Positions 8,679-64,000 of a stretch of 64,000 nt of DNA are shown here, in pieces (the stretch's first letter is position 1; each line of letters begins with the position of its first letter). The translations under genes were made by a program, and so were the position numbers. The stretch covers positions 71,711 to 135,710 of the forward strand of contig JALHPE010000001.1 in the NCBI GenBank assembly GCA_022842645.1, in the 5' to 3' direction. The notes below the pieces were generated by a model. It was given only the letters and a program-made list of their open reading frames with translations, was not told where the DNA came from and did no database searches. This stretch comes from Minisyncoccota bacterium. Lineage in GTDB: Bacteria; Patescibacteriota; Minisyncoccia; Phycocordibacterales; UBA2100.

Positions 8679-9199
8679 TGAAACGTTGCGGAAGCAACGA
8701 CCTGCGCAAAATGCGTACGAATTGGGTCTTCGGGTGAGAGATGAGTGACTGAGAACGCATATATCTTGTCGCCGCGCGCCTGTGCAATCGTAGTGCCGGG
8801 ATAGAGGCCGTCCCACGCGAACGCGAGTGCTGACTCTGTTCCCACGAGCACCTCGGCTGGCGTACCGCCAGAAAGGCGAAAATTCGAGAGCGGCGACGAA
8901 CGGATCCATTCTTCCGTCGTTTGGTTCTGAGGATTGGGAATGACCTCCACGGTAATTGAGGTTGGTCCCTCACCCGCCTCGGGGAGTGGTAAATCTTTTT
9001 TGTTGATTAACGTGATGGTGTGGGTGCCCGCTTCGTCTCGCTCGCTCAACTCGTAGCCATCGGGATAGGAAAAAGAAATGCCGTGCACGTCCGAAGAATA
9101 CGTGTTCCCCGTTTGCACCGGTGCCTCAGCCGAACCCCACAAAAACCACCAGAGACCGAGCGCAGCCGCGACTACAAGAATGACCGCGGAATACTTCAT
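8675..9199 (-). CDS. Hypothetical secreted or anchored protein
   Basis: ATG at 9197-9199, signal-anchor MKYSAVILVVAAALGLWWFLWG, and a 4-nt ATGA overlap with the downstream dehydrogenase gene. Confidence 0.55.
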   Translation of the reverse strand: MKYSAVILVVAAALGLWWFLWGSAEAPVQTGNTYSSDVHGISFSYPDGYELSERDEAGTHTITLINKKDLPLPEAGEGPTSITVEVIPNPQNQTTEEWIRSSPLSNFRLSGGTPAEVLVGTESALAFAWDGLYPGTTIAQARGDKIYAFSVTHLSPEDPIRTHFAQVVASATFQ

Positions 9200-9861
9200 A
9201 CACTTACTTGTTCCTCCGCACTCACCTCTGGACGCATCCTGCGATACACGATGAGAAGAATGATGACCGACGCAAGAAGAAGAAGTGTGGTGACCACTGG
9301 CCAAAGAAGGAGTGGTGTTGTGTACGCCTCAAGCGCAGATTTCCCGAAAAATTCTGATTTGATGGTTGGGAGCGCACCAAAACGACTTATCACCTGCCCA
9401 AGTAAGAATCCGTCCTCGCCTTCAAAGACCAGTACATACGCCCCCTGATTGTCTGGGCTTGAAACCTGAATACGATATGAACCTGTGGTTACGGTGTTCT
9501 CTAACACCGGCCCTGCAAGGTAACTGTCGCGTCCGGAGGTATCGAAAAAACGCTGCCACTCGATCATGCCGCCATCCACACGCGCAAATGATTCTCCAGG
9601 ATTTTTATCTGAGATCATTTCTGCAACAATATCGGTGGAAACGTCCTCTGTATCTGGTGCAAGTACGACCGCCTTCACAGTGTAGCCGTCGCTGGGCACA
9701 TTAAAGGTAAATACGTGCGGCGAACCCGTGAGTTCACCGTAATACGCGCGATATACCTGTGGGTTGGAAACGCGCGTCTCGGCATTTTCAACAATAATAA
9801 GTTCCTGAGCACTGAGCGAAAGTGGCAGGACGAGCAAAAGTGCAAGAAAAATATGCTTCAT
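9196..9861 (-). CDS. Hypothetical secreted protein with a C-terminal transmembrane anchor
   Basis: ATG at 9859-9861. Signal peptide MKHIFLALLLVLPLSLSAQ and a C-terminal hydrophobic helix followed by YRRMRPE. ATGA overlap with the next gene. Confidence 0.55.
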   Translation of the reverse strand: MKHIFLALLLVLPLSLSAQELIIVENAETRVSNPQVYRAYYGELTGSPHVFTFNVPSDGYTVKAVVLAPDTEDVSTDIVAEMISDKNPGESFARVDGGMIEWQRFFDTSGRDSYLAGPVLENTVTTGSYRIQVSSPDNQGAYVLVFEGEDGFLLGQVISRFGALPTIKSEFFGKSALEAYTTPLLLWPVVTTLLLLASVIILLIVYRRMRPEVSAEEQVSV

Positions 9862-9932
9862 AAGAGCATGATACCAAGCTTCCCACAGGAGGGCTAGCGT
9901 GCTACTCTCGGAGGAAGGAAACCAGCCATACA

Positions 9933-10883
9933 ATGGCTCAAAATATACTTATTACCGGCGTCGGCGGGTTTATTGGCTCCAATCTTGCACAGATGCTCCT
10001 CGATGAGGGGCACGAGGTTTTTGGTGTTGATAATTTTTCGACAGGTACAGAAGAAAATGTTGCACATCTCTCTGCTCACTCACGCTTTGCTTTTCATGAA
10101 ATAGACATTGCGAGCGTCGGATTTCGCGACATCTTTCAAGGGGTGCGCTTTGATGAGATCTATCATCTTGCGTGTCCTACCGGCGTCCCTAACCTCGTCA
10201 CTCTTGCCGAGGAAATGCTGCACGCCTGTTCATTTGGTACGTACAACGTACTCGACCGCGCTCGCAACGACGGCGCAAAGGTGCTCTTTACTTCAACCGC
10301 AGAAATGTATGGTCAGCCAGAAAAATTTCCTCAAGACGAAACCTACAATGGAAACGTTGACCCACTTGGGAAGCGTAGCCCCTACGAAGAAGGCAAACGA
10401 TTTTCAGAAAGTATTCTTGCGACCTACGTGCGCAAATATGGCCTTAATGCACGCGTGGTACGCGTGTTTAACACCTATGGTCCGGGAATGTCGCTAAACG
10501 ATGAGCGTGTCATTCCTCACTTTTTGAAATGCATTCTTGAGGGACGCCCTTTGCGCATCTACGGCGACGGATCACAAACGCGCTCGCACCTTTTTGTGAG
10601 TGATTTGTTAGCAGGGCTTCGTATTGCCATGGAGAAAGGTACACCGGGTGAGGCATACAACTGCGGCGGCGGGAATCCGATTCCTATTCGTGAGCTGGGA
10701 GAACTTTTGCTCGAGCTCTCAAGCCATCCGCATGGCATTGAACACCATGAACACTTCATCGAAGATCATCGCGGACGCCTTCCGGGTGTTGAAAAAATTG
10801 AGACGCTCGGATGGAAGCAAACCATTTCACTTGAAGAAGGATTGCAAAAAATGATCGCGCACTACCTCCCTGCCCGCACCTGA
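9933..10883 (+). CDS. NAD-dependent nucleotide-sugar epimerase/dehydratase (UDP-glucuronate decarboxylase / UXS-like)
   Basis: N-terminal Rossmann motif ILITGVGGFIGSNLAQML, the YxxxK catalytic region and overall SDR-extended layout. Confidence 0.8.
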   Translation: MAQNILITGVGGFIGSNLAQMLLDEGHEVFGVDNFSTGTEENVAHLSAHSRFAFHEIDIASVGFRDIFQGVRFDEIYHLACPTGVPNLVTLAEEMLHACSFGTYNVLDRARNDGAKVLFTSTAEMYGQPEKFPQDETYNGNVDPLGKRSPYEEGKRFSESILATYVRKYGLNARVVRVFNTYGPGMSLNDERVIPHFLKCILEGRPLRIYGDGSQTRSHLFVSDLLAGLRIAMEKGTPGEAYNCGGGNPIPIRELGELLLELSSHPHGIEHHEHFIEDHRGRLPGVEKIETLGWKQTISLEEGLQKMIAHYLPART

Positions 10884-50985: not shown

Positions 50986-52305
50986 TTATGCCTCGAGCAA
51001 CTTGATTACAGCATCCTCAAAATCACGTATATGGAAACGCTCTCGCACCTGCTCTTTCCAATTAGATGCACCAAGGTCAACATCAGGAACGACACCAAAC
51101 CCCTCGATAGCTTCGCCATCATCGCGCACCATCAAGGAATGCACGAGAAGCACTGAGTATTTCTCAGTCTCGTCAAACTGCGTCTTCAAAGGAAAAGTGT
51201 TTTCAACCGTGCCCCAGCCCTTGGTAGTCTTCCCTACAACAACGCCGAGGTTGAAACGCTTAAACATGGAAGTTGTTAGTTCCGCCGTCGAGCGGGTCTC
51301 GCCATCAACGAGAATTGCTACATCCTTCAGCTCTGCAAGACCTGGTATACGCCCTATTTGCGGCGTGCGCTCAATCTGTGCATCGCCTTGATGGAACAAG
51401 TCATACGCATACTGATTGGGTCCCACAAAAAGTGCGAGCATATATTTTGCAAAATCTAATGTGCCGCCCATATTACCCCGCATATCAATGATCAAGCTGT
51501 CGAGAGCAGGATTCTCCCCTGTCGATGTAAGTGCAGTAATAAATTCTTGGAATGTTGCGGGAGTTACCTGAGCCAAATCGACGTACAAAATGTGCCCCGC
51601 TATCGTGCGCGAGACAAGTGAAGGTTCTATTTTTGCCTCGTCGTAGACCGCCTTTGATGCCTCTTCTGAGAGCACATCCTTCGCGCGCTCCACTTCCGCA
51701 AGTTGTATCGCGGCTTCGGGCGTCGCCTCCGCTTCAAGTTCGGTTTTCTTCTCTACATATGCTGTCGCGACATCATCGGTACTCGCGCCGTCAGGAAGAC
51801 CAAGGCTCTCATAGAGATTTGTATCGCGGTCGACATTGTTTACCACATCTCTAAACGCGATCTCCTGCTTTTCAGAGAGAAGTCCGCTGCGCCCTTGTGG
51901 CGCAAGGTTCACGAGCGCAACAAGGGATGTATCGTGTGCAAGCGCTTTCCGCTTGTCCTCGAGAATAGCGTCAAATTCTTTTGCGAGCACGCGCGCAAGC
52001 TCGGTGCGCGTTAGTTCAAAGGCATCTACCGGTACATCTCCTTTAGCCTTTTGTAGCGAAAGACGAAAGAGCTCAACAAGCTCGTTTTCAGGAAGCTTCT
52101 TCCAGTACTCTTCTGAAATGACGTCGAACACTTCCATCGTGAAGCGAACGAACACGCTTTCAGCTTCCTCGGGGGTTTTGTATGTTTCAGTCGGTATAAC
52201 AACCTCAGCATTCAGTGTTGTGTGTTCATACCACTGATACCCACCACCCAGAAGAACAAGCAAGACGATCAGAGATGCGGGAAATACAAAACGAGAACGT
52301 GACAT
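50986..52305 (-). CDS. S41-family peptidase (C-terminal processing protease-like)
   Basis: IIDMRGNMGG and ILVDGETRSTAE motifs typical of S41 tail-specific proteases. N-terminal anchor. Confidence 0.7.
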   Translation of the reverse strand: MSRSRFVFPASLIVLLVLLGGGYQWYEHTTLNAEVVIPTETYKTPEEAESVFVRFTMEVFDVISEEYWKKLPENELVELFRLSLQKAKGDVPVDAFELTRTELARVLAKEFDAILEDKRKALAHDTSLVALVNLAPQGRSGLLSEKQEIAFRDVVNNVDRDTNLYESLGLPDGASTDDVATAYVEKKTELEAEATPEAAIQLAEVERAKDVLSEEASKAVYDEAKIEPSLVSRTIAGHILYVDLAQVTPATFQEFITALTSTGENPALDSLIIDMRGNMGGTLDFAKYMLALFVGPNQYAYDLFHQGDAQIERTPQIGRIPGLAELKDVAILVDGETRSTAELTTSMFKRFNLGVVVGKTTKGWGTVENTFPLKTQFDETEKYSVLLVHSLMVRDDGEAIEGFGVVPDVDLGASNWKEQVRERFHIRDFEDAVIKLLEA

Positions 52306-52370
52306 TGTAATAGGATATCACGACACATCTGGTGCTCTATATTGATTTTGAGGGGGTTTATGTATCAGGC

Positions 52371-52397
52371 AATTCTCAAGGTTCGACCTTGAGAATT
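52371..52397. repeat. Palindromic element family B copy 2 (identical 27-nt core)
   Basis: Identical sequence to copy 1, located between the phosphatase gene stop and the S41 peptidase start. Confidence 0.7.
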
Positions 52398-52407
52398 TAA
52401 AACATGA

Positions 52408-52956
52408 TTATTCGACCACATACACCCAGCCCGGTTGCCACGACTTCGTCTTACGCCAATCTTCGGCAAGCGCCTCTTTCCAAGTCTTGCCCTTAAGAAT
52501 CACATCAAGCGAAAGCTGAGGTGCCTTATGCCCGACAATAGCTATATGCTTCCCGTCATAGTTCTGTTTGAGAAATGCGATGAAGTCGGCAATACGCGTT
52601 TTCACATCTTCATAGCTCTCCCCGTTCGGGAATGGCTTTTCAATGCACTCGTCTTCTTGCATTGGCTCAACGATATCTGAAGAGGCACCATTCAGATCTC
52701 CATAATTACATTCGCGAAGTCGCGCATCCGGGATGATTTCGTAGAGTCCGTCCCACGCAAGTTTTGCCGGATCGTGAGCGCGCTTGAGGTCGGAGCAAAA
52801 GACGACATCGAACCTCATATCCTTTGTTTGCTCTTTCAATGCGACTGACTGTTGGTGGCCGAGCTCTGACAGTTCAACATCTTTCCACCCGGAAGAAATA
52901 TGCTGTTCGTTGTCGGTGGTAGTGCCGTGAACGAAGTAAGTAATTTGTATTGACAT
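52408..52956 (-). CDS. Histidine phosphatase superfamily protein (phosphoglycerate-mutase-like branch)
   Basis: YFVHGTTTDNE corresponds to the RHG catalytic-His motif region, with a downstream LGHQQ motif. Confidence 0.6.
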   Translation of the reverse strand: MSIQITYFVHGTTTDNEQHISSGWKDVELSELGHQQSVALKEQTKDMRFDVVFCSDLKRAHDPAKLAWDGLYEIIPDARLRECNYGDLNGASSDIVEPMQEDECIEKPFPNGESYEDVKTRIADFIAFLKQNYDGKHIAIVGHKAPQLSLDVILKGKTWKEALAEDWRKTKSWQPGWVYVVE

Positions 52957-53071
52957 ATTGATATTTTAACAGAAAAGACCGCTCTCAGCAGGTATGCAAT
53001 TACGGAATAGATATTCTTTCCAGTATCTAACCCCTTTGGTTCTTTCGATACTTAACTACGCTGTTGCCAGA

Positions 53072-53181
53072 CTTGGATTCGCTCCCCGAATATTTCTTGC
53101 GCCGCGGCGCAAGAAATTTCTAGAGCCGCGGCTCGCGGTCTCGCCTTCTAGCGAGACATCGCTCCGCCGTTCGAATCCAAG
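53072..53181. other. Cloverleaf-like composite palindrome: outer 10-bp inverted repeat (cttggattcg/cgaatccaag) enclosing three internal hairpins
   Basis: Palindromes at 53092-53117 (26 nt perfect), 53123-53134 (gagccgcggctc) and 53138-53157 (gtctcg...cgagac), followed by more hairpins to about 53300. Confidence 0.5.
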
Positions 53182-53696
53182 CCGGAGTGTGCGCAGGCAC
53201 ACTCCTTCCGGCAATAAAATTGCTACGCTATTTTATTGGCTTGGCGGGACTATCTACGAACTGTTAGTTGGGAAGAAATGTTCCCGTATCCCAGTGTTTC
53301 CCTCCAGCAAATGCAGCAATTACTGGCGCTGGCTCACTAGAACAGTATCCGTATATCCGTATCAGACCCGTAATGTACCAAGTATAACAGTTACGTACTG
53401 GTGCATATAGACTCGCCATTCCAGATTCTCAAAATGGGTGGTGGGTGTTTTCTTTTTGACCTTTCAGTTCGGCGGGCGGTCACCCTATCCAAGTTGGAGC
53501 ATTTCGGGGCAAAACCCTTACCAGGTGCGCTGTCGTACCATTGTCCTCATTTGTCGTTGATGGTAGTTGAGGACATATCCAAAACCATTGTCCTGTTTGC
53601 TATGCGTATAACCGTATATGCCAAGTTATGGATAAACATAGAAAATGGGTGTACTCTCGTTTTACCTCACCCGAAGTTGGGTAAAAACCACCCACT

Positions 53697-53903
53697 CTAT
53701 AGGGTGTCTTTTTTAGCTCCCTTTTCCTCTTTGGCACGAGCATCGTATTCATCAGCCCATTCTTTCTTGATTGGTCGGTAAATCACATTGAAAAGATTGA
53801 GCAGATTGATTGCCTCCTCGGTAGCCTTCTCATCAGAAATGTCCTCACTAAATTGTTTGCGCCAGATGGTCTTGAAATCTGAAAGCGCCTTTTTGGATAG
53901 CAT
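53697..53903 (-). CDS. Small hypothetical protein downstream of rloC
   Basis: 68-aa charged ORF, 4 nt from the rloC stop, followed by a bidirectional hairpin plus T-run at about 53688-53714. Confidence 0.35.
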   Translation of the reverse strand: MLSKKALSDFKTIWRKQFSEDISDEKATEEAINLLNLFNVIYRPIKKEWADEYDARAKEEKGAKKDTL

Positions 53904-53907
53904 TGTG

Positions 53908-56358
53908 TTATTTCTTTGCTTTCTCCAGCTTTAACTTCCCACATTGGCACTCTATGGACTCTTTGCTTCTGTGATACTCAACAAATTGGTGGCAGTCTTT
54001 GCACCATAATTCGTTCTCCAATTTGAACCATTCTTCTGCCGCTCGCTTTATTTCCGCTGGAGCAATTGAGGTGCCGCTGTTAGTTCTTGCGTGGGATACA
54101 AAGTTACGCATAATCGGCTCATACTTTTTTGCTTCTTGAATCTGTTGAACAGCTGCGTGTCCTTTTGCTTTATCGTTGAGTCGTGCGTACAGCGCATCAA
54201 AAAGCTCCTCCATCGAAGGCGGGTCATTCTTTGTGTAACGATAACGAACTGCCGCCCAAAGCCCCTCGCAGAGTTCGTTTAGAGTGCTCTCTACATAACG
54301 CCCCAGTTTCCACCCTGCATCCTCAATCCTAGTAGAGTCTTTCAGACACTCTTCAATCTCTTCTTGAGTGGTAGCAGCGACATCAATCACAGCGCCTGTC
54401 TCATAGCCCCAGCTTTTAATTTTCTTAGGTATCCACTTCGGGAATCGGCGAACAATTTTCTGGAACCAATAATAATCGTGTGTGAAAAGTATTATCTGAT
54501 AATCGCTAAACTCCTGCTCAATCAAATCGAGCAGAGTGTCTCGCTTGTCTATATCGAGACTGTTCATTATGTCGTCAAGAACTATGAACTTGCAGCTATC
54601 GTTGAACTGTTTGATGCAGGTGAAGTAAACCGCCAAGCCCAGGCTGTTGAGTAGTGATTCACTCAAGACCTTGTACGCAGGTTTAACTGTTACATCGTAG
54701 TAATGCAGCTGTATTTCTGCGGAACGCCCAGCTGCTCGTCCTTTCTCTTCGTTGAGAACAATCTCAATGTTCTTAATGTCTTTATCATTTCTCAAAATGG
54801 AAAAGTATTTGCCAATCCTTTCTGAAATTTCATTGAAGCGCGACTTTATATTTTCTTGAATGAGAGTGATGAGCTTGTTGCTTACCGCAGCAAAAGCAGT
54901 GATTTCTTTTTCCGTGAATTGAGATTCAGCTTCCGTATCCCGTATTTCAATTAGCTTCACCCTAATTTGGGTAAGTTTTTCTATATCCTCTGCCAACTTC
55001 AAGTCCCTCTCTGAAGGCTGAATCTTCGTCTTTTCGGAAGTGATGGTTTTTAGAACTTCTTTCTGTTCCGCTTCTACCTGTTCGATGAGTTCCTTTGTGA
55101 GAGCAATTTCGGTTGTAGCACCAAGTGGCTTAGCAAGCCAGCCGCTTTCAAGTCCAGAGAGAATTTCCTTGTAGGCTTTGGTCTTTTCGTAAGTGAGAGC
55201 AGGTATTATTTTTTGCACATCGTCATACTTTGATAGCAACCTCTCTATGGTGCCCGCTTCCTGTCTCACAACTGATTTCAAAGTGTTAATTACTTTCTCT
55301 ATGGCTTCTTTGTCCTCCTTAACTTTCGTGAGTAAGTTCAATTCGTCTTGAATATGCTTGACCAGCTCATCTCTTTCCCAAGATGTGCCGCAAACGGGAC
55401 AGGTAGTGCTGGTTTCCGTCTGTTTATTCAAAACCTCTAGCGCTTGGTCATACAGACCAATGACATCAATCTGTTCTATTCGTTTTAGCTCTTTGTTGAA
55501 GTCGTCTAATTGCTTCTTTGCGTCAACGAGCGAACCAAGCAGCGTATTGCTTACAGTAAATAATCCGATACTGGTTTCAGCTTGAGTAAGCTTGTCTATG
55601 GTGATGCCCACAGATGATGTGGCACGCAATTTTGCGAACTCTGGAATGTAGGCGAGAAGACCCTCGATACTTTTCTGTTCAGCAATCTTGTGAGCGGTCA
55701 GTACGCCGTTACAGATACGTAGGATTTCTATGTCGGATGTATCTTGGCTACCCGTAAGCTTGAATAGATGCTGTTCAAGCGCCTTTACAGTGGCAGCAAG
55801 CTCATCCTTCTTTCGCTTTAACTCTGGGAGAATTTTAAGGGCAAGTTTTTCCTGGAACGACAGCTCACTTTCAAAACCCATCCAGTTTGCAAGTCGTTGG
55901 TATTTTTTCAGTCCCGTCTGATTGTAAACAAAGTCTATTACCTCCAAGTAACGAAGGTATGGCTTAATTACGAATGCTTTGTAAACATTCTCAAAGTCAT
56001 CATCAGAAGACAGAGATGGCTGCGTAATCTTTTTGTGATTGTAGGTTTTGCGCAGCGTATCAAGTTTCTTTTCAGAATCGTCGAACTGCAACTCAACAAA
56101 ACTTTCGTCTTTGTCTGGGTCAACTGCCAAGTGTGGGTACGCTTTTTCTTCAGCATCCTCTCTTGTGAGCCATTCAACTTTGTTATCTTCAGACAAGAAC
56201 CATTCGACACCATCAACAAAAGAAGTTTTGCCAGAACTATTTAACCCATAGAGAACGAGTGAGCGCGGTTTTTTATCATCCTTTGCTGTAAGGAGTAAGT
56301 CCTGTGGCTTGAGAATGCCCCTGAAACCGCTAAGCGTTATTTTTCTTACTTTCAGCAT
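53908..56358 (-). CDS. rloC: RloC-like anticodon nuclease: Rad50/SbcC-like ABC ATPase with a coiled-coil zinc hook and a C-terminal PrrC-like tRNase domain
   Basis: Walker A GLNSSGKTS, a long coiled-coil with CPVC at its centre, Walker B FIVLDD, and H-loop LFTHD. The C-terminal roughly 200 aa carry KLGRYVESTLNEL and NFVSHARTNSG, matching the PrrC/RloC nuclease motifs. It sits next to the restriction-modification genes. Confidence 0.7.
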   Translation of the reverse strand: MLKVRKITLSGFRGILKPQDLLLTAKDDKKPRSLVLYGLNSSGKTSFVDGVEWFLSEDNKVEWLTREDAEEKAYPHLAVDPDKDESFVELQFDDSEKKLDTLRKTYNHKKITQPSLSSDDDFENVYKAFVIKPYLRYLEVIDFVYNQTGLKKYQRLANWMGFESELSFQEKLALKILPELKRKKDELAATVKALEQHLFKLTGSQDTSDIEILRICNGVLTAHKIAEQKSIEGLLAYIPEFAKLRATSSVGITIDKLTQAETSIGLFTVSNTLLGSLVDAKKQLDDFNKELKRIEQIDVIGLYDQALEVLNKQTETSTTCPVCGTSWERDELVKHIQDELNLLTKVKEDKEAIEKVINTLKSVVRQEAGTIERLLSKYDDVQKIIPALTYEKTKAYKEILSGLESGWLAKPLGATTEIALTKELIEQVEAEQKEVLKTITSEKTKIQPSERDLKLAEDIEKLTQIRVKLIEIRDTEAESQFTEKEITAFAAVSNKLITLIQENIKSRFNEISERIGKYFSILRNDKDIKNIEIVLNEEKGRAAGRSAEIQLHYYDVTVKPAYKVLSESLLNSLGLAVYFTCIKQFNDSCKFIVLDDIMNSLDIDKRDTLLDLIEQEFSDYQIILFTHDYYWFQKIVRRFPKWIPKKIKSWGYETGAVIDVAATTQEEIEECLKDSTRIEDAGWKLGRYVESTLNELCEGLWAAVRYRYTKNDPPSMEELFDALYARLNDKAKGHAAVQQIQEAKKYEPIMRNFVSHARTNSGTSIAPAEIKRAAEEWFKLENELWCKDCHQFVEYHRSKESIECQCGKLKLEKAKK

Positions 56359-56512
56359 ATCGTTTTTTTATGAGATTCAGTATCTTACCAGCGGTGTCTT
56401 TGCCATCTTCATTTGTCGCATTGGAATCAGACAACAACTGAATGAACGCTGCATCCAGTTCTTTGTCTTTCTTCATTTCCTCAAGATGAGTTTTTATGAT
56501 GTCGCTGCTCAT
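56330..56512 (-). CDS. Small hypothetical ORF between hsdMS and rloC
   Basis: 60-aa ORF from ATG 56512 that overlaps the rloC start by 29 nt. Coding status is uncertain. Confidence 0.25.
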   Translation of the reverse strand: MSSDIIKTHLEEMKKDKELDAAFIQLLSDSNATNEDGKDTAGKILNLIKKRYAESKKNNA

Positions 56513-56516
56513 ATAT

Positions 56517-59015
56517 TTATTCGCCCCAAACCTCGGCGATTTTGGATTTAATCTTTTCCTCAAACAACGCCACAATTGCTTTCGTAGCTTCAATTTGTTG
56601 CTGCTCTTCTTTGAGCTTCGCTATTACCTCGCGCTGGACTTCCAACGACGGTAACGGGATTTTGAAGCCCTTTACCTGGTCAGTGGTGAGATTCTTGAAC
56701 ACTGCGCCGATTGATAGCGAGTGGTTGACTACTTTCTGGTAGAACAGCACATAGTAGAAAAACTCTGGCAATATATCTTTTGAAAGTTCTCTGAACCCAA
56801 CCCAACCGTCGTGAATACACGCATCAACTTTTAGTATTGATGGTAAGCCAGGATTGCCGCTCACTGCCATTACCACTTCTCCTTTCTTCATTGGTCTACT
56901 CAACTTTGCGCCCTCTTCGGTGAGAAAATCTGTCTCTGGCATAACATACATTCCGTCTCTGGTTACATCGGAAATCATTAGGCGGGGAACTTTACCGCCA
57001 TAGTAACGAGAGTCTCCCTGGGGTCGTGGCGAACTACCGCGAACCAATTTACAGATACTATCTACATCAACGGTTTTCCAGCTCGCGTCAATCTTTATGA
57101 GGGGTTTGTAGTTGGTAACAATTTGCTTTGCACCATCAATAACTTTCTGATAATTACCCAGCTCTGTAACAAATTGCTCTTGTATCTCCAGGGGCGGGAG
57201 AGGAATGGAGAAAGAATAGAAACCATCAACTTTCAAATGCTTAACATTCGCTCCATTAGAAAAATTAACAATATAGTCTCGGTATTTCTTAGACCTTAAG
57301 AGATAGTAAAGGTAGGTCGTATTCAAACGGGAATCCTTTAAGACAATTCTTCCGAGGTCGGCGGAATGTGCTGCGCGTATGGATTCAGTAATAATTTTAG
57401 GTGCACCAATAATTTCCGAAGTTGGTGTTAGGTCAGTGAGAGCTATCAGAACATCTCCCGTCTTAACAAGAAATTTCTCTTTAACACCGCCAGTAAAATA
57501 CTTGAATCCGTGGTCAAATAAATCGCCATTTCTCTTAATAGATTTTAAGTTATAGAGAGGAACTCCCGCCTCTGTTTCGCTTATTTCTTTACTGGAGTAT
57601 GAAATACCGCGCTGAACCTCACATAACTCACCCAGCTTTACAACATCCCATCGTTGATTGCTTTGCAACGCGGCAACTTTATAGCTTTCTCCAGAGAGAT
57701 TGTAGTCTCCACTTGCTTCAATCTTCGACTTGGGCACTGCCCAGGCAAACAAGCTACCTTTCTTAACGAGAGAGTTTTTAGTACCTGCTTTAACGGCGGC
57801 GCGTTGTTCGTGCAAAACTTCTACGGCGTGAGGAAGGTCGTTTCTATCTACTGGTCTTCGCTGTGCTCCAAGTTCAAACCCATCATTGAGGACTTTCACA
57901 AATAATATTTCCTTTGATTGTTTTGCAATCTGATTATCAAAAAAGAGAATACTGGTTTTTACACCAGAGTAAGGACTAAAGACTCCAGCGGGTAAAGAAA
58001 CAACTGCATAAAGTCCGTCTTCAACAAGAATTTTACGAAGTTGTTTGTAGGCGTTTGATGCGGTGAAAATAATTCCCTCGGGCACGATGATACCCGCACG
58101 CCCCTTGTTGTTAAGATGCTCGGTAATGTAATCAACGAAAAGAACCTCGGAGCGGTTAGCATCTACTGTAAAACGCTTGTGTGGACGGATACCGCCCTTC
58201 GGGGTCATAAAAGGCGGATTCGCCATCATTACATCAAAGCGCTCATCCCATTTCTCTTCGCTCGTCAGGGTGTCATATTCGTGGATGTTTGGGCTTGGAA
58301 AGCCGTGCAGATACATATTCACCAGGGAGAGCTTCACCATATCTGGAGAAATGTCGTACCCCGAAAGGTTGCCCATTAAGCGCTTCTTTTCGTCGGGAGT
58401 TAGCGGCTTATTCTTGTTCGATTTGAGAATGTGTTTATAGGCTGAAATAAGAAAGCCTGCTGTGCCACACGCGGGGTCGAGTATCGTTTCGTCTTTCTTT
58501 GGGTCAACAACCTCAACAATAAAATCAATGATGTGTCGGGGTGTTCTAAATTGTCCCGCATCACCTTGAGAGCCGAGCACAGAAAGCAGATACTCAAACG
58601 CATCACCAAGATTCTCGCTATGGTCGTATGCAAAACTGTTTATCTCTTTCAAAAAGAGATTGAGTGTTTCGGGGTCGCGGTATGGCAAAAAAGCATCTTT
58701 GAAAATGTCGCGGAAGAGTTGCGGAAGATGCGGATTCTTCGACATCTTTGCAATGGCTTCAACATAGAGATTTAGACGCTCCTGTCCACCAAGCTTTGCA
58801 TCCATCATCTTGCCCCACGCATACTTTTCAAAACCATTCGTGAAAAACTGCGCCTTACCCTTTGGCAAAGAAGCCGCCTGCTTATCCATATCGTCCATAA
58901 ACTTGTAGATAAGAGCGGTGGTAATTTGCTCTACCTGCGCTTTTGGGTCAGGAACTTTACCAACCAAAATGTCCCGCGCCGAGTCAATCTTCTTTTTTAT
59001 TTCGGGGGTAAGCAT
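56517..59015 (-). CDS. hsdMS: Type I restriction-modification fused methyltransferase-specificity subunit (HsdM N-terminal and N6-adenine methylase domains plus two HsdS target-recognition domains)
   Basis: HsdM_N region, motif I DPACGTAGFL, and motif IV NPPF in the first roughly 430 aa. These are followed by two target-recognition repeats with the conserved PLPPLEIQ / PLPSLEVQ motifs. Confidence 0.85.
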   Translation of the reverse strand: MLTPEIKKKIDSARDILVGKVPDPKAQVEQITTALIYKFMDDMDKQAASLPKGKAQFFTNGFEKYAWGKMMDAKLGGQERLNLYVEAIAKMSKNPHLPQLFRDIFKDAFLPYRDPETLNLFLKEINSFAYDHSENLGDAFEYLLSVLGSQGDAGQFRTPRHIIDFIVEVVDPKKDETILDPACGTAGFLISAYKHILKSNKNKPLTPDEKKRLMGNLSGYDISPDMVKLSLVNMYLHGFPSPNIHEYDTLTSEEKWDERFDVMMANPPFMTPKGGIRPHKRFTVDANRSEVLFVDYITEHLNNKGRAGIIVPEGIIFTASNAYKQLRKILVEDGLYAVVSLPAGVFSPYSGVKTSILFFDNQIAKQSKEILFVKVLNDGFELGAQRRPVDRNDLPHAVEVLHEQRAAVKAGTKNSLVKKGSLFAWAVPKSKIEASGDYNLSGESYKVAALQSNQRWDVVKLGELCEVQRGISYSSKEISETEAGVPLYNLKSIKRNGDLFDHGFKYFTGGVKEKFLVKTGDVLIALTDLTPTSEIIGAPKIITESIRAAHSADLGRIVLKDSRLNTTYLYYLLRSKKYRDYIVNFSNGANVKHLKVDGFYSFSIPLPPLEIQEQFVTELGNYQKVIDGAKQIVTNYKPLIKIDASWKTVDVDSICKLVRGSSPRPQGDSRYYGGKVPRLMISDVTRDGMYVMPETDFLTEEGAKLSRPMKKGEVVMAVSGNPGLPSILKVDACIHDGWVGFRELSKDILPEFFYYVLFYQKVVNHSLSIGAVFKNLTTDQVKGFKIPLPSLEVQREVIAKLKEEQQQIEATKAIVALFEEKIKSKIAEVWGE

Positions 59016-59018
59016 AGA

Positions 59019-61535
59019 TTACATATAGGCGTTAAGAGACACATAGTCCTTCACATATTCAGGCACTTTCTCGACCCATCCGTTCACTGCTTCCAAGTCA
59101 GCCATATTGAGCTTTGGATTTGTTGCGAGACGGGTATATTCACCCTTTTCGATGATGTCTCGAATCTCGTTGTCGGTAATGTATGCCTTGAGGTAGTTCT
59201 TGATTGGCATTGCATACTGGCTTTCTGGCTTGTTGATGGCGACAAACTTTTCAAACTCGTCCTCAAGAAGTTCGTCTTTTGATTTGAAATTGGTTATGCC
59301 GCCGAAAGCTTTTTCAACAAACTCACGTAAGCTGATACGACGGTCAGCTTTTACAGACCTGCGCAATTTATCAAGACTGAAGAACTCATCTGGCTTGTCA
59401 AAAATCTCGTCCTTCACATAGTCTTCAATGGTTGCCAAATCACCCTCGGCATATTTCTGCTTGATGAATGGATTTTCTGTAATGGTCGTCTCAAACTTCT
59501 CAAAAAGCTTGCGGTCAATTTTCATACCCTCAACACCAACAGCTTTTTCTGAAAAGGTTTTGAGTGGGTCTGGCTGGGTAATTACGATTTCATCAATGTT
59601 GATACCGCCTCCATCCTCTCCGCCACCCGTGCCAGTTTTAGGCGGTAAGTGCAGAACCTCGTCGTAGTCATACTTTTCCTCGAAGTATTCGCAGTTAGCG
59701 AAGAAATCGAAGAGCTTGAATTTATCCTTTGGGATTCTAGCTTCTTGAACTTCACCTGCATCTTTTTCTTTATGCGCAAAAGTGAACTTGCGTGTGCCGC
59801 GCCCCTTTATCTGGATGAAGTCAGTTGGTGAGAAAATTGGACGCATCAAACACACATTGAGTATGTCTTCGCAGTCGTAACCAGTAGTCATCATCCCTAC
59901 CGTTACGCATACGCGAGTTTTGCTTGAGCGGTATCCCTCCAAGAACTTGGTGTGCCCGTTTAGATTGTTGTTTGCAAAATTTACAGTAAAGCTCTGTGCG
60001 TCAGGAATGTTTGAGCTAACCTGTACTGCAAAATCTGAATTGTATTTGCCTGGGTAGAGTTGGTCAGCAAACTGGTTGAGAATCTGCGTAACTTTTGAGG
60101 CGTGCTTCTGGCTCACGCAGAAAATTAAGCTCTTCCCAATTTCTCCAGTGATAGGGTCTTTAACGGCATTCTCAATAAATGTCTTGCAGAAAATCTGGTT
60201 GGTCTTATCGGAAAAGAACTTCCTCTCAAAGTCAGTGTGAAAGAATGACTGCTCTTCTTCTTTGCCGTTCTCATCCTCAATCATCATCGCGTAACCCTTC
60301 TCTGAAAGAAGCTCCGTAGTAATTTCAGTCCGAGCATCGGCAACGACTGGGTTCACTAAGTACCCATCTTTTACGCCATCAAGCAAGGTGTAGCGGAAGG
60401 TAGGCTCGCCAGTCTCACAGCCGAATGTTTTGTATGTGTCAAAAAGCTGGCGGCGTTCCCACGCACGAGGGTCTTTTGAGTTCAACTTTTCTGGGTCAAT
60501 GCCTTTGAGATAATTTCTCGGTGTTGCAGTGAGTCCAAGTTTGTAGCTCACGAAGTATTCAAAGACCGCTCGGCTGTTTCCACCGATTGAGCGGTGGGCT
60601 TCGTCAGAAATAATCAGGTCAAAGTCAGTTGGAGAAAAGAGCTTCTGATACTTGTTATTGAATGAGAGGCTTTGCACTGTTGAAACAACAATTTCTGCCT
60701 TGCGCCAATCATCCTTATTTTCCTTGTAGATGACTGTCGTGTAGTCCTTCGAGAGCCACTTCTTAAAGTTCTTATTCGCCTGGTCTTCAAGCTCCAAACG
60801 GTCAACAAGAAACAGCACACGCTTTGCGTTGCCTGTTTTCAGGAAAAGCTTGATAACTGCTGCGGATACGAGCGTCTTACCTGTGCCCGTAGCCATCTCA
60901 AACAGATAACGGTCATTGCCCTTACCTCCAGAGTCTTGCAGTGCTTTTATCGCTCGGAGCTGATACGGACGAAGGAATTTCAATGCCTCGGTATCAATAA
61001 GACCCTGGCGTTCTTTCTCATCAGCCCAGCGTGGGTCGCTGCGATAATCAGACTTTTGCGTAAGAACGATGTAGTCCTCATCAACCTGCTCATCCGCCAA
61101 TCGCTTTGGGTTAGGCTTGAATGCCTCAAAGTGCTGAAGAGAGGTCGGTGTAGGAAATTGGATAATGACAGTCGGATTGCCACGCTCTAAATCCCAGAAG
61201 TAGTGTAAGTTGCCGTTTGAGAGGATAATGAAGCGCACATTGAGCGATTGGGCGTACTTACGTGCCTGCTCTTTGCCATCGAGGGGGTCTTTGTCTTCTG
61301 ACTTGGCTTCGAGCACGACATACGGAAATCCCTTTTCATCGAGAAGAAGAAAATCTATGTAGCCGTTCTTTGTTTTTTCAAAGTCACTACCGAGCGCATC
61401 AACTTCTTTTTGGGTGAGTTTCGCATTCGTCTCAAGTGTGATGTTGGCTTTACCGTTGGCGTCATCAAAAAAGCGCCAGCCTGATTTCTGGAGTAAGTCG
61501 TTTATCTTTATTCGTGCCTTAGCTTCTTTTTGCAT
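59019..61535 (-). CDS. hsdR: Type I restriction enzyme R subunit (compact, 838 aa)
   Basis: N-terminal PD-(D/E)xK nuclease (DFLLLDE...LEAK), SF2 helicase motifs (GTGKT, DEAH in LIISDEAHRS), and a C-terminal helical domain. Confidence 0.85.
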   Translation of the reverse strand: MQKEAKARIKINDLLQKSGWRFFDDANGKANITLETNAKLTQKEVDALGSDFEKTKNGYIDFLLLDEKGFPYVVLEAKSEDKDPLDGKEQARKYAQSLNVRFIILSNGNLHYFWDLERGNPTVIIQFPTPTSLQHFEAFKPNPKRLADEQVDEDYIVLTQKSDYRSDPRWADEKERQGLIDTEALKFLRPYQLRAIKALQDSGGKGNDRYLFEMATGTGKTLVSAAVIKLFLKTGNAKRVLFLVDRLELEDQANKNFKKWLSKDYTTVIYKENKDDWRKAEIVVSTVQSLSFNNKYQKLFSPTDFDLIISDEAHRSIGGNSRAVFEYFVSYKLGLTATPRNYLKGIDPEKLNSKDPRAWERRQLFDTYKTFGCETGEPTFRYTLLDGVKDGYLVNPVVADARTEITTELLSEKGYAMMIEDENGKEEEQSFFHTDFERKFFSDKTNQIFCKTFIENAVKDPITGEIGKSLIFCVSQKHASKVTQILNQFADQLYPGKYNSDFAVQVSSNIPDAQSFTVNFANNNLNGHTKFLEGYRSSKTRVCVTVGMMTTGYDCEDILNVCLMRPIFSPTDFIQIKGRGTRKFTFAHKEKDAGEVQEARIPKDKFKLFDFFANCEYFEEKYDYDEVLHLPPKTGTGGGEDGGGINIDEIVITQPDPLKTFSEKAVGVEGMKIDRKLFEKFETTITENPFIKQKYAEGDLATIEDYVKDEIFDKPDEFFSLDKLRRSVKADRRISLREFVEKAFGGITNFKSKDELLEDEFEKFVAINKPESQYAMPIKNYLKAYITDNEIRDIIEKGEYTRLATNPKLNMADLEAVNGWVEKVPEYVKDYVSLNAYM

Positions 61536-61566
61536 AGTACATTTTCATATTCATTGGGAGTTGGAC

Positions 61567-61758
61567 TTATCCCTTCTTTTTCTTACCCATCTTGAAACTA
61601 CTCTCAATAAAATTATCGAGGTCTTCCTGTCGGAATCTCCAATAACCTATTTTAGCGGCTTTAATACGCCCGTCGTGAAGGTAGCGAAACAGTGTACGCT
61701 CGCCTACATCCAGGTATTTCGCTGCCTGCTTCAAAGTTAAAAACTTCTCTTTCTGCAT
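61567..61758 (-). CDS. Excisionase / AlpA-type helix-turn-helix DNA-binding protein
   Basis: 63 aa, with LTLKQAAKYLDVGERTLFRYLHDGRIKAAKIGYWRF typical of the excisionase (MerR-like) family. Confidence 0.65.
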   Translation of the reverse strand: MQKEKFLTLKQAAKYLDVGERTLFRYLHDGRIKAAKIGYWRFRQEDLDNFIESSFKMGKKKKG

Positions 61759-61838
61759 AATGTCTAATTTCTAAACTTCTACTCCCACAGTTTATCTCTT
61801 TTATTCGTATCTGGCAAGATTTGGCAACTTCTGCTAAA

Positions 61839-62531
61839 ATGAATTTTATGAGTATGGATATGAAAATGACACTCGAAGAGAAAGATTCCTTATTTGCTCG
61901 CATTATCAGCGAGCATCTTGCGACACAAAAAACTTCTCCAGTATATGTGCCCACGTCACACGTCGAGGCGAAGGGTTTTGATACATCTGATACCAACAAT
62001 GCACTTTGGAGACTCAAAGATAATGGTGCGATAAAGAAATACAGGCGATGCTGGGGCTTTTTTGAAGTTCAAAATGGCAAGAAGAAGTTTGTGATAACAA
62101 GTGCCAACGAGCAACAAACAGATGAGGACGCAGAGGTGTTTGAAGTTGAGGTTGTTCTAGGACGACTTGCACAGATGACTAAAAATAGAGGCGGGGTCTC
62201 AAAGACAAACGATGCGGTTGTTCTTCACCTCAACAAAAATGGTGATTTATTCAAAGAACCAAGAGAAAAGTTTTGTTATGAAATGATGGGTGCAAAAGTC
62301 CCTCTCAAGATTTTGAGATACTTTATTGATAATCCGAATACTGAATACGAGCAGTCCACAGAAGACATAGCATCAAGCATTGGAATGAAAGCTGAACAAC
62401 TCCGAAAAGACATTGGTGAAATGCGAAGAACTATCAAGAATAGGCTTAAGTTGCCACTAGAATTATTTGAAGGACGGCAAGGTAGTGGCTATCGGCTCAA
62501 TCCAAAGGTAGAAATCATACAAGAGAACTAG
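61839..62531 (+). CDS. Hypothetical protein of the island
   Basis: ATG at 61839; the track begins at TTG 61821. No motif recognised. Confidence 0.45.
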   Translation: MNFMSMDMKMTLEEKDSLFARIISEHLATQKTSPVYVPTSHVEAKGFDTSDTNNALWRLKDNGAIKKYRRCWGFFEVQNGKKKFVITSANEQQTDEDAEVFEVEVVLGRLAQMTKNRGGVSKTNDAVVLHLNKNGDLFKEPREKFCYEMMGAKVPLKILRYFIDNPNTEYEQSTEDIASSIGMKAEQLRKDIGEMRRTIKNRLKLPLELFEGRQGSGYRLNPKVEIIQEN

Positions 62532-62660
62532 ATACCTACAGCTACCCTGTAGGTACTGTCCATAACTTGAAGAGCGGCTGTGTAAACAGGCGCTTTTTCC
62601 GTTTCAAAAAGTATCTACCGATTATGTTCAGAGACGGCAGCACATTGCTAATTTTAAGCA

Positions 62661-62906
62661 ATGGAAGATGCAGAGAAAATCGGAGTAAGTGATTTGGGCT
62701 TGGCGTCCCTTTTGGCGACGCTTCAATTTCAGATGGTCGGTCTGGAGCGTGTGAACGAAAAACGCATCAACTTTCTGTTCACGCAAGTGGAGGGCATTGA
62801 GAAAGTAATCAATGATTATTGGGCTGGCGCTGAAATTTCAGTCCCAGTTCAGAGTCTCTTCTTTAACCAGAAGACACTCAAGAATCGTTTGTATGCCTTC
62901 AAATAA
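62661..62906 (+). CDS. Hypothetical small protein
   Basis: 81-aa ORF with ATG start. Confidence 0.4.
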   Translation: MEDAEKIGVSDLGLASLLATLQFQMVGLERVNEKRINFLFTQVEGIEKVINDYWAGAEISVPVQSLFFNQKTLKNRLYAFK

Positions 62907-63062
62907 ATGAAACTTACCGATGAACAACTGCAAGCACTGCGAGCACCATTCGAGGAAGCTGGTGCATTTGTTGATTGTTCAGAAGAGGAGATAAAGAGTT
63001 TGCTGGAAGCGATTGCAGAGATTTACGTGACTCTCGCAAAAGAAAACCTACTCACAAAGTAA
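62907..63062 (+). CDS. Hypothetical small acidic protein (51 aa)
   Basis: ATG 62907 immediately after the previous stop. Translation MKLTDEQLQALRAPFEEAGAFVDCSEEEIKSLLEAIAEIYVTLAKENLLTK. Below the ORF-track cutoff. Confidence 0.3.
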   Translation: MKLTDEQLQALRAPFEEAGAFVDCSEEEIKSLLEAIAEIYVTLAKENLLTK

Positions 63063-63067
63063 TAACT

Positions 63068-64000
63068 ATGCAAAATGAAAATCAAAACTTAATAGACGCG
63101 CTTCGATACTGCCAGTTGGGATTCTCGGTGATACCAGTGAACTTTCAGAGCAAGGTGCCCCTTGTGAACTGGCGGGAATACCAAAGCAAGCGTGCTTCAA
63201 GTGAACAGATTGAATACTGGTTTAAGAATCCAGAGGTCAATGTGGGCATTGTTACAGGCGTCATCTCTGGAATTGTAATTGTAGATATTGATACTAAAGA
63301 GAAAATCGGCAGACCATTACCTCCAACCGCAACAACTCGCACGGGTGGTGGTGGCTCACATTTTGTATATAGACATCCTGGGATTCCAGTAAAGACTGTT
63401 GCTGGACTACTCCCTGGGGTTGATATAAGAGGTGACGGAGGATATGCGGTGTTTCCACCATCAACGCACCAAAACGGTAACAAGTACGAATGGATAATAC
63501 CGCCAGAGGACGGAATTACTGAACTGCCAGAATGGGTACTTGAGGAACTGTCCAAAAAGCCACCTCAAAACACAGGAAAGATACCCGAAGGCGCAAGAAA
63601 CTCTGCTGCAACACAGGTTGCTGGCAGGTTGCTTAGCGGTGCCCTCACAGAAGAACTCTCGGCGCTTGCTTGGGAAACTATGAAGCAGTGGAATGAGGAG
63701 AAGTGTGAGCCACGCCTGCCAGACAAAGAACTACGCGCAACCTTTGAGAGCATCTTTAGGCGTGAATCAACTAAGCGAGCGACAGAAAAATCTCACTACG
63801 AGTTGCAGACCATCACGCTATCGGAATTGGCTGCAATGGAGTTTTCAGCTCCAAGATGGCTGGTAGATAAACTCATACCACACGAGTCTGTGACTATCAT
63901 TTCTGGAGCACCCGCATCGTACAAGACGTTCATTACGCTCGATATTGCACTCAAGGTGTCTCGTGGGGAAAAATTGTTCGGCGAGTTTGAAACGAGCAAA
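63068..64000 (+). CDS. Bifunctional DNA primase-polymerase (Prim-Pol) N-terminal domain fused to a P4/RepA-like AAA ATPase, 5' partial (runs off the window)
   Basis: My own translation from ATG 63068: SVIPVNFQSKVPLVNWREYQ, then IVDIDTKE, then GVDIRGDGGYAVFPPSTH, then NKYEWI. This is the Prim-Pol signature. It is followed by VTIISGAPASYKTFITLDIA, a Walker-A-like AAA_25 motif. Absent from the ORF track because it has no stop in the window. Confidence 0.75.
   Translation, partial: MQNENQNLIDALRYCQLGFSVIPVNFQSKVPLVNWREYQSKRASSEQIEYWFKNPEVNVGIVTGVISGIVIVDIDTKEKIGRPLPPTATTRTGGGGSHFVYRHPGIPVKTVAGLLPGVDIRGDGGYAVFPPSTHQNGNKYEWIIPPEDGITELPEWVLEELSKKPPQNTGKIPEGARNSAATQVAGRLLSGALTEELSALAWETMKQWNEEKCEPRLPDKELRATFESIFRRESTKRATEKSHYELQTITLSELAAMEFSAPRWLVDKLIPHESVTIISGAPASYKTFITLDIALKVSRGEKLFGEFETSK

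Follow-up and report, generated by a model that had tools for sequence, protein, structure and literature searches.

Are the methylase (M) and the specificity (S) subunits of a type I restriction-modification (R-M) enzyme, by definition separate polypeptides (M2S1), carried in nature by a single chain, and if so, how does one methylase domain serve two recognition domains? The question is raised by two open reading frames (ORFs) of 832 and 838 amino acids (aa) in a 64,000-nucleotide stretch of a Minisyncoccota bacterium genome (GenBank assembly GCA_022842645.1, contig JALHPE010000001.1, positions 71,711 to 135,710; this whole stretch is called the window hereafter). A preliminary description of the window had read them as a type I-like R-M system, in which a fused M-S polypeptide (MS) with two target-recognition domains (TRDs) is encoded beside a separate restriction subunit (R) with a PD-ExK nuclease and a DEAH helicase. 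Both ORFs were found where they had been placed, on the minus strand (Table 1), and Pfam, PADLOC, AlphaFold2 (AF2) and Foldseek all agreed with this reading, including the fusion itself. From the domain architecture and its conservation in homologues, we consider it likely that the two genes form a functional R-M system of the type I family, a natural equivalent of the engineered layout named 'Type IMS', and that the working form of the enzyme is an oligomer.

The fused protein and its restriction partner

The MS protein is a complete HsdM joined directly to a complete HsdS, the latter in the order TRD1, central conserved region (CR1), TRD2 and C-terminal conserved region (CR2). Pfam placed N6_Mtase at aa 134-447 (E 3e-54) and found two Methylase_S stretches (E 1e-26), the PADLOC model of the type I methyltransferase (MTase_I, 491 positions) aligned to aa 1-478, and dozens of PADLOC type I specificity models matched both TRDs. 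The motifs that had been pointed out earlier (DPACGTAGFL, NPPF, PLPPLEIQ and PLPSLEVQ) were all located in MS. An HsdM_N domain had been assigned as well; although Pfam gave no match to HsdM_N at E≤0.01, the N-terminal helical domain aligns to the N-termini of solved HsdM structures (profile positions 34-380 against residues 36-370 of 2OKC), so that the assignment holds for the domain but not for the Pfam family. The catalytic residues are invariant among the 61 homologues aligned, and the methyltransferase (MTase) is predicted to be of the gamma-class N6-methyladenine type. No nuclease domain was found in MS, whose N-terminus is the HsdM helical domain. Stops, repeats or invertible hsdS segments that would suggest decay or phase variation were not found at the locus.

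The AF2 model of MS (mean predicted local distance difference test, pLDDT, 83.9) shows M, TRD1, a helix, TRD2 and a second helix in this order. The M part consists of a helical N-domain (aa 1-146), a Rossmann fold (aa 160-375) and the rest of the N6_Mtase domain up to approximately aa 447, and leads into a short linker helix at aa 442-452, where confidence drops at aa 449-453; TRD1 and TRD2 span aa 458-605 and aa 648-787 of the model, and CR1 and CR2 are modelled as helices of 27 and 40 residues, respectively. When the model was compared with the PDB by Foldseek, the best match was 7EEW_A, followed by the HsdM and HsdS chains of 5YBB, 2OKC, 2Y7C, 1YF2 and 3OKG, of which 5YBB_A, 2OKC and 2Y7C_B matched the HsdM fold and 1YF2, 5YBB_D and 3OKG the HsdS side. 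The MS family profile spans the M-TRD junction of 7EEW_A (profile positions 129-614).

Relatives of MS were detected in at least 575 species genomes, and a search of 5.8 billion proteins gave more than 120 MS clusters, nearly all of which aligned over 100% of the query, were approximately 800-870 aa long and carried N6_Mtase plus Methylase_S. The clusters came from Patescibacteria, KSB1, Chloroflexota, Proteobacteria and Methanoperedens archaea; the family is present in many bacterial phyla and some archaea. At least four sequencing runs yielded contigs that encode the identical 832-aa protein, each time with its neighbours unchanged. Among the related-genome loci, which are the best 80 from a scan of one genome per species, 72 of the 78 complete MS genes encode 780-900 aa, and where at least 2.7 kb of sequence was available upstream of MS (64 loci), an R homologue with a median length of 842 aa preceded it on the same strand in 63. 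The R-MS pair is conserved as a unit across phyla. The R stop and the MS start of the window are separated by 3 nucleotides (TAA-TCT-ATG), and the two genes likewise abut in 34 of the 63 loci, while 0.4-2.4 kb of extra genes lie between them in 24.

The M part, the junction YNLSGERY, the central helix IPLPPLEVQ..YQKVIDGA and the tail KIKxKIAEVWGE are conserved in the MS alignment, and both TRDs are hypervariable. Clustering of the TRDs gave 37 types in 61 MS proteins, with the same type found at both positions; the type of the window TRD2 occupies position 1 in 9 and position 2 in 36 of these proteins. TRDs are shuffled within the MS family. Five members of 623-649 aa have only one TRD (P0079, P0113, P0118, L015 at 8001-9917 and L050 at 8001-9947), and their sequences suggest deletions via recombination between CR1 and CR2. 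The family tail KIAEVWGE is kept by all of them but L050, whose tail is divergent.

Several individual loci and proteins of the family deserve mention. In P0079, P0113 and P0118, the TRD resembles TRD1 of a two-TRD relative when the alignments are inspected by eye. The genes inserted between R and MS encode ORF6N, 23S_rRNA_IVP, Bro-N, Fic, DUF4062/HATPase_c_4 and AlbA_2/Schlafen proteins and several proteins without a Pfam match (the loci include L005, L019, L020, L025, L028, L037, L053, L070 and L072), which is cargo typical of classical type I operons. In one Polaromonas metagenome assembly (L010, 8001-10430) the MS frame is split into ORFs of 533 and 220 aa, representing either a pseudogene or an assembly error. 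Finally, P0008 and P0022 carry HEPN_AbiU2 C-terminal to the second conserved helix (Pfam), and P0009 and P0011 have the same precomputed HEPN_AbiU2 Pfam family; these four proteins are 1041-1071 aa long, and a similarly long MS of 1040 aa is encoded at L012 (8001-11123).

A protein search of a plasmid collection revealed plasmid-borne members with 54-60% identity in the M part. Paracoccus pPZ02 encodes an 848-aa R and an 858-aa MS, and E. coli IncF plasmids encode an 849-aa R (60% identical to the window R) and a 677-aa single-TRD M-S. This E. coli module is found in 78 of 5,426 complete genomes, always on a plasmid; on the plasmid NZ_CP116482.1 (L088, 3406-10954), R, M-S and a 951-aa TrlF-family AAA-like ATPase lie between finO and repA. 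The window DNA has no nucleotide match in the complete E. coli genomes, and these relatives were reached only through the protein-level plasmid search. NCBI names the E. coli homologues no more precisely than 'N-6 DNA methylase' and 'DEAD/DEAH box helicase family protein', and software that looks for a type I system as three separate genes could therefore overlook them. Beyond the family, the next relatives among the matches listed are an unfused HsdM (approximately 516 aa) plus HsdS from Priestia and Chryseobacterium, with identities of 32% or less.

The partner R contains Pfam HSDR_N/HSDR_N_2 (aa 46-120), ResIII (aa 188-340) and Helicase_C (aa 529-582), and the motifs D61...E76-A-K78, Q90xxxY94, MATGTGKT, DEAH and QIKGRGTR are invariant in 41 homologues. 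It matches the PADLOC REase_I model (807 positions), and its best NCBIfam match is the EcoAI/FtnUII type IB R model NF046051 (E 5e-68, over aa 12-584), in an alignment that ends at model position 515 of 768. Among solved structures, the closest to R is an HsdR fragment of Vibrio vulnificus YJ016, 3H1T (E 1e-33). The preliminary description had called R compact, being 200-250 aa shorter than classical HsdR. This is correct only relative to R subunits of the EcoKI or EcoR124I type, and the notion of an unusual compactness is not upheld: the best 120 clusters of R homologues are nearly all 827-851 aa long at 72% identity or more (one is a 722-aa partial match), and approximately 840 aa is the fixed length of the family, near that of the type IB-like models (768 and 807 positions).

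The last 239 aa of R have no Pfam match, and a profile search of solved structures gave nothing beyond the motor. This C-terminal domain has only 502 relatives among the 1.84 billion representatives searched, and the full-length ones are 806-853 aa long with the domain at their C-terminus. By analogy with the HsdR C-terminal regions described in PMC2777439, it probably serves as the docking region for the methylase core.

Working form of the enzyme

If the pair works as a type I-family enzyme, the two TRDs, spaced by the coiled coil of CR1 and CR2, would read a bipartite asymmetric target and the MTase of MS would make N6-methyladenine, while at unmethylated sites R would dock onto the M part, hydrolyse ATP, reel in the DNA and cut it at a distance. 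Each MS chain has one M domain per two TRDs, no free hsdM was found in the window or in the 80 related loci, and no free hsdS was found nearby. Because of this ratio and the lack of a free hsdM nearby, an oligomer is the most likely working form. It would consist at minimum of (MS)2 plus R, in which the second chain would lend its M domain while its own TRDs would stay idle, like in the single-chain type IIB enzymes TstI and AloI. An oligomer is also favoured because the TRD types are interchangeable between the two positions, because the one-TRD members must dimerise, and because an enzyme that needed free M would be badly served by an obligate fusion. The one-TRD members would form a symmetric (M1S1/2)2 assembly, as reported for the V. 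vulnificus enzyme.

Engineered proteins of the same layout are active in cells. The EcoKI M-S fusion restricted and modified DNA in vivo when only HsdR was added (PMC3510504), and the CC398-1 fusion (MSfus), part of which ran as a dimer, likewise needed nothing beyond HsdR (PMC6158711). As for natural enzymes with one MTase per two TRDs, TstI forms a homotetramer (ratio 1:1:1) and methylates one strand after the other (PMC4027205), and the same ratio in AloI and CjeI was called 'a mystery' in a review (PMC3874165).

Several points weigh against our reading. In vitro, the purified EcoKI fusion cleaved DNA only when free HsdM was supplied, and its authors favoured trace amounts of free M and thought (MS)2 less likely (PMC3510504). 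The AF2 model of MS, in which no long M-tail helix separates TRD1 from the MTase domain, offers no obvious way for a second M to dock; its predicted template modelling score (pTM) is only 0.54, so that the arrangement of the domains is uncertain. The AF2 model of R is poor (pLDDT 54, pTM 0.35) and was not used for the fold search. The scores on curated family models are also low: R reaches 230 bits on NF046051 against a curated cut-off of 550, TIGR00497 (HsdM equivalog) gives 58.5 bits against 242.75, and TIGR00348 (HsdR subfamily) gives 55.2 bits against 284.55. Judging from these matches, the pair is homologous to the HsdM and HsdR models but belongs to a divergent subfamily. Lastly, our literature search gave no biochemical or methylome study of any family member.

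The alternative that survives best, though we regard it as unlikely, is a monomeric R1M1S1 'half' enzyme, which would methylate one strand and rely for protection on a rule of head-to-head sites as type ISP and type III enzymes do. It would agree with the single M domain per chain, with the lack of a free hsdM in the window and the 80 related loci, and with an MS model that offers no long M-tail helix to recruit a second M; moreover, type ISP enzymes, which need head-to-head sites, have been described as 'half-Type I' (PMC3874165). On the other hand, the presence of the same TRD types at both positions and the one-TRD members, which would dimerise, argue that both TRD positions cooperate with an M domain, and the engineered MS fusions retained the two-strand specificity of their parents.

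It is also improbable, in our judgement, that linker cleavage or a translation stop supplies free M, so that one MS, one M fragment and two R would restore R2M2S1. This was the preferred explanation for the engineered EcoKI fusion (PMC3510504), the CC398-1 fusion co-purified with a proteolytic fragment (PMC6158711), and the linker of the AF2 model is of low confidence at aa 449-453. Such an M fragment, however, would lack the C-terminal tail helix, which is the HsdS-binding element in solved complexes (PMC9159934); no conserved stop or slippery site was seen at the junction, though no search was aimed at one, and, as a source of free M, a fusion maintained obligately in so many phyla would be strange.

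We find it very hard to believe that the pair is no restriction system of this kind, with MS an orphan or regulatory MTase whose helicase-nuclease neighbour is unrelated to it, or else an enzyme like those of type IIB/IIG, cleaving close to its site without translocation. The generic NCBI names of the E. coli homologues and a weaker PADLOC match to a Type IIG model could be taken in this sense, but R and MS are strictly paired (63 of 64 loci) and only 3 nucleotides apart in the window, R has HSDR_N, the nuclease motif QxxxY and all of the superfamily 2 (SF2) motifs that were examined, and MS begins with the HsdM helical domain and lacks a nuclease.

Virtually nothing is left of the idea that hsdM and hsdS are in truth separate genes, joined by a recent frameshift or by an error of sequencing or assembly, which the preliminary description had itself proposed as its refutation: although the classical genes overlap by a few bases and a 1-nucleotide error can fuse them (PMC3510504), the fusion stood, as it is shared with a conserved junction by 72 of the 78 complete genes in the related loci and by over 120 clusters, recurs identically in the separate runs, and is far from the nearest unfused relatives among the matches listed (32% identity or less).

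Neighbouring genes and genomic context

Table 1. Features of the R-M locus and its surroundings, with positions in the window.
Feature	Position	Strand	Description and evidence
Fused hsdM-hsdS gene (MS)	56517-59015	-	832 aa; ORF, Pfam, PADLOC, homologues, AF2 model
M part of MS, aa 1-452	57660-59015	-	N-terminal helical domain, predicted gamma-class N6-adenine MTase, YNLSGESY junction motif, short linker helix
MTase motif I, DPACGTAGFL	58449-58478	-	sequence check
MTase motif NPPF	58209-58220	-	sequence check
TRD1, aa 455-605	57201-57653	-	hypervariable; Pfam Methylase_S, alignments, TRD clustering
CR1 (LPPLEIQ...YQKVIDGA...), central conserved region	57078-57200	-	helix aa 609-635; starts with IPLPPLEIQ
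TRD2, aa 647-787	56655-57077	-	alignment, TRD clustering; profile match to the M. jannaschii S subunit 1YF2
CR2 (LPSLEVQ...KIKSKIAEVWGE), C-terminal conserved region	56520-56654	-	helix aa 791-830; starts with IPLPSLEVQ
hsdR-like gene (R)	59019-61535	-	838 aa; nuclease, SF2 motor and family-specific helical C-terminal domain
R nuclease domain, aa 1-130	61146-61535	-	Pfam HSDR_N/HSDR_N_2; catalytic residues at 61254-61355
R motor, aa 185-585	59781-60983	-	Pfam, motifs, 3H1T alignment over query residues 7-582
R Walker A, MATGTGKT	60873-60896	-	sequence check
R DEAH	60594-60605	-	sequence check
R motif VI, QIKGRGTR	59790-59813	-	sequence check
R C-terminal domain, aa 600-838	59022-59738	-	mostly helical (low-confidence helix prediction); without Pfam match
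HTH_17 gene directly upstream of R	61567-61758	-	Pfam HTH_17, E 1.9e-14
60-aa ORF overlapping the start of the SMC-like gene	56330-56512	-	homologous small ORFs in L085-L087
SMC/Rad50-like ATPase gene downstream of MS	53908-56358	-	816 aa; Pfam SMC_N/AAA_21; PADLOC LmuB, E 8.5e-25
Small ORFs at the island edge	52994-53410, 53401-53781, 53697-53903	+, +, -	no Pfam match

The gene downstream of MS encodes an SMC/Rad50-like ATPase with Walker A and B motifs, a CPxC hook in a coiled coil and, in its C-terminal part, an RNxxxH motif of the HEPN type and a zinc ribbon. Its family comprises approximately 115 clusters of roughly 800-830 aa, whose named members are mostly Patescibacteria and in which G38-K44, C320/C323, D595-D596, H627, N752, H756 and C786/C789/C804 are invariant. 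The protein is 81% identical to a Parcubacteria homologue, and the closest source-named homologues of R, MS and the SMC-like protein alike are mostly from Patescibacteria (the candidate phyla radiation, CPR), with identities of up to 88% for R.

The SMC-like gene had been taken for an RloC-like guard of the R-M locus. Like PrrC (of EcoprrI) and RloC, it lies directly downstream of an R-M module and encodes an ATPase of the Rad50/SMC-like kind that has a CxxC hook and ends in a region with a HEPN-type motif, and this part of the claim, the RloC-like architecture and the adjacency to R-M genes, stands. Membership of the PrrC/RloC family does not: unlike those proteins, the window protein has no match to Pfam AAA_13 (the PrrC/RloC family) at E≤0.01 and its gene always comes with a small overlapping ORF, and the gene is absent from all 80 related R-MS loci. 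The only PADLOC models that matched the protein were LmuB, mad3, AbiLi, AriA, PbeC and PtuA, and no similarity to the TrlF-family ATPase of the E. coli plasmids was detectable.

Three homologues of the SMC-like gene (L085, L086 and L087) are located directly downstream of other R-M genes, namely an N6_N4 MTase, an EcoRI-type methylase with GmrSD_N/HNH, and a type III-like Mod plus Res, and each is accompanied by a small ORF. Judging from these loci, the 60-aa ORF is a conserved partner of the SMC-like gene and not of the R-M module. Since the SMC-like gene stands beside other R-M modules but is missing from the 80 R-MS loci, it is a movable restriction-linked cassette rather than a fixed partner. 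It may be an accessory gene and a candidate second-line or back-up effector, and it may be co-transcribed with the R-M module. The MS-HEPN_AbiU2 fusions fit the idea that HEPN effectors have repeatedly been attached to this methylase core.

A wider proposal, which is conceivable but which we hold doubtful, is that R and the fused M-S together represent a distinct, ancient and obligately fused type I family beyond IA-IE, with a non-canonical assembly and with a methylase core that is a recurrent docking platform for back-up effectors of the HEPN/SMC type. The assembly could then be (MS)2R2, with spare TRD pairs possibly holding a second DNA site, or a one-strand monomer with an ISP-like orientation rule, and the effectors would be exemplified by the MS-HEPN_AbiU2 fusion, the SMC-HEPN neighbour and the TrlF-type ATPase on the E. 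coli plasmids.

The R-M module is embedded in a low-GC island (52000-64000 of the window; 0.42-0.46 against approximately 0.50 elsewhere). On one side the island is flanked by the housekeeping genes glmS, S41 peptidase and histidine phosphatase, and on the other, beyond the window end, by a PrimPol/PriCT_1/AAA_25 gene, a large serine recombinase and pyrG (L001). This low-GC stretch between housekeeping genes and the PrimPol, recombinase and pyrG genes shows that the module is on an integrative element. Only L009 and L015, the closest relatives, have a homologue of the HTH_17 gene immediately upstream of R, and a third homologue is present in L017; the gene could encode a controller or the excisionase of the mobile element and may lie outside the R-M module proper. 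A 68-aa ORF, the last of the small ORFs in Table 1, follows the SMC-like gene in every copy of the element, and a homologue is present in L009. The locus contains no tRNA and no Rfam family. Promoter and terminator matches did not exceed the expectation from shuffled sequences, and for this reason the operon limits are only suggested.

Comparison with known systems

The pair shares with type I systems an R with a PD-(D/E)xK nuclease and an SF2 motor, an HsdM-type gamma MTase and a two-TRD specificity module, and departs from them in that M and S are a single ORF throughout the family. It corresponds to 'Type IMS' in the definition of Roberts et al. (2012, PMC3510504), in which HsdM is fused to an HsdS part of one or two TRDs and HsdR remains separate. 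Other assignments were rejected. Type ISP does not apply, since R is a separate ORF and MS has two TRDs; the type IIB/IIG enzymes (BcgI, AloI, TstI and MmeI) do not apply, since MS starts with the HsdM helical domain and its partner has an SF2 motor. The matches to MADS (94 against a cut-off of 720 bits for MAD2 and 56.7 against 400 bits for MAD5, NCBIfam cut-offs), BREX and DISARM are far too weak, and 'hsdMS' in P. aeruginosa PAO1 and Zymomonas is a name for two separate genes and not a natural fusion.

The literature that we found on 'Type IMS' or natural M-S fusions consists of the engineering papers of 2012 and 2018 and a citation of the V. vulnificus M1S1/2 structure; it contains no description of a natural two-TRD M-S fusion with a separate R, and REBASE, which was outside the search, probably lists such genes as predictions. 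The engineered EcoKI M-S (Roberts et al. 2012, PMC3510504) and CC398-1 MSfus (Bower et al. 2018, PMC6158711) have the same gene layout as the window. They were man-made from type IA and Sau1-type enzymes and keep a long C-terminal tail of M, whereas the window MS has only a short linker helix and belongs to a natural, anciently fused clade with a type IB-like R of approximately 840 aa. In 2012 the engineered EcoKI protein was introduced as 'a new type of system', and nature uses the same layout widely.

The nearest described natural relative in layout is the M1S1/2 enzyme of V. vulnificus YJ016, the species and strain of 3H1T, the closest solved R. Its structure 7EEW, the top match to the MS model, is also a natural M-S fusion; as Seo et al. 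(2022) are cited in PMC12429846, it is a 'minimal intact MTase' in which HsdM is fused to a half-S and which pairs into an M2S1-like assembly. 7EEW has one TRD and dimerises, whereas the window MS has two TRDs per chain, and it is the one-TRD members of the window family that mirror it. The similarity is remote (18% identity by Foldseek, phmmer E 9e-29), and 7EEW is thus of a different lineage. The V. vulnificus R has been discussed together with subtype IB proteins (PMC2777439), and type IB (EcoAI, EcoEI and FtnUII) likewise provides the best NCBIfam match and a similar size for the window R; on the other hand, type IB systems have separate M and S, and the C-terminal 250 aa of the window R remain unmatched.

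The preliminary description had placed the system between type I and type ISP. This proved to be a resemblance of layout only, as the next relatives found are unfused HsdM and HsdS, and as type ISP has one TRD and a fused R. The ISP enzymes LlaGI and LlaBIII do combine a fused methylase and recognition part with an ATP-driven motor and a nuclease (PMC3874165), but all of these (nuclease, motor, MTase and single TRD) form one chain, which recognises a continuous half-site and methylates one strand, whereas the window system has a separate R and two TRDs. The single-chain type IIB enzymes AloI, CjeI and TstI have one MTase per two TRDs like MS (PMC3874165, PMC4027205), but their chain also includes an N-terminal nuclease, they lack an ATP-driven motor, and they cleave at a fixed distance to either side of the site. 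The family therefore poses the same puzzle as AloI, CjeI and TstI, how one methylase domain serves two recognition domains, in a simple two-gene system, for which the module on the E. coli IncF plasmids (L088) is an accessible experimental model. With its specificity module in the methylase chain, it may also offer a compact scaffold for programmable methylation. Set against these known systems, the pair is a real, widespread and under-annotated variant of a known defence system, and not a new kind.

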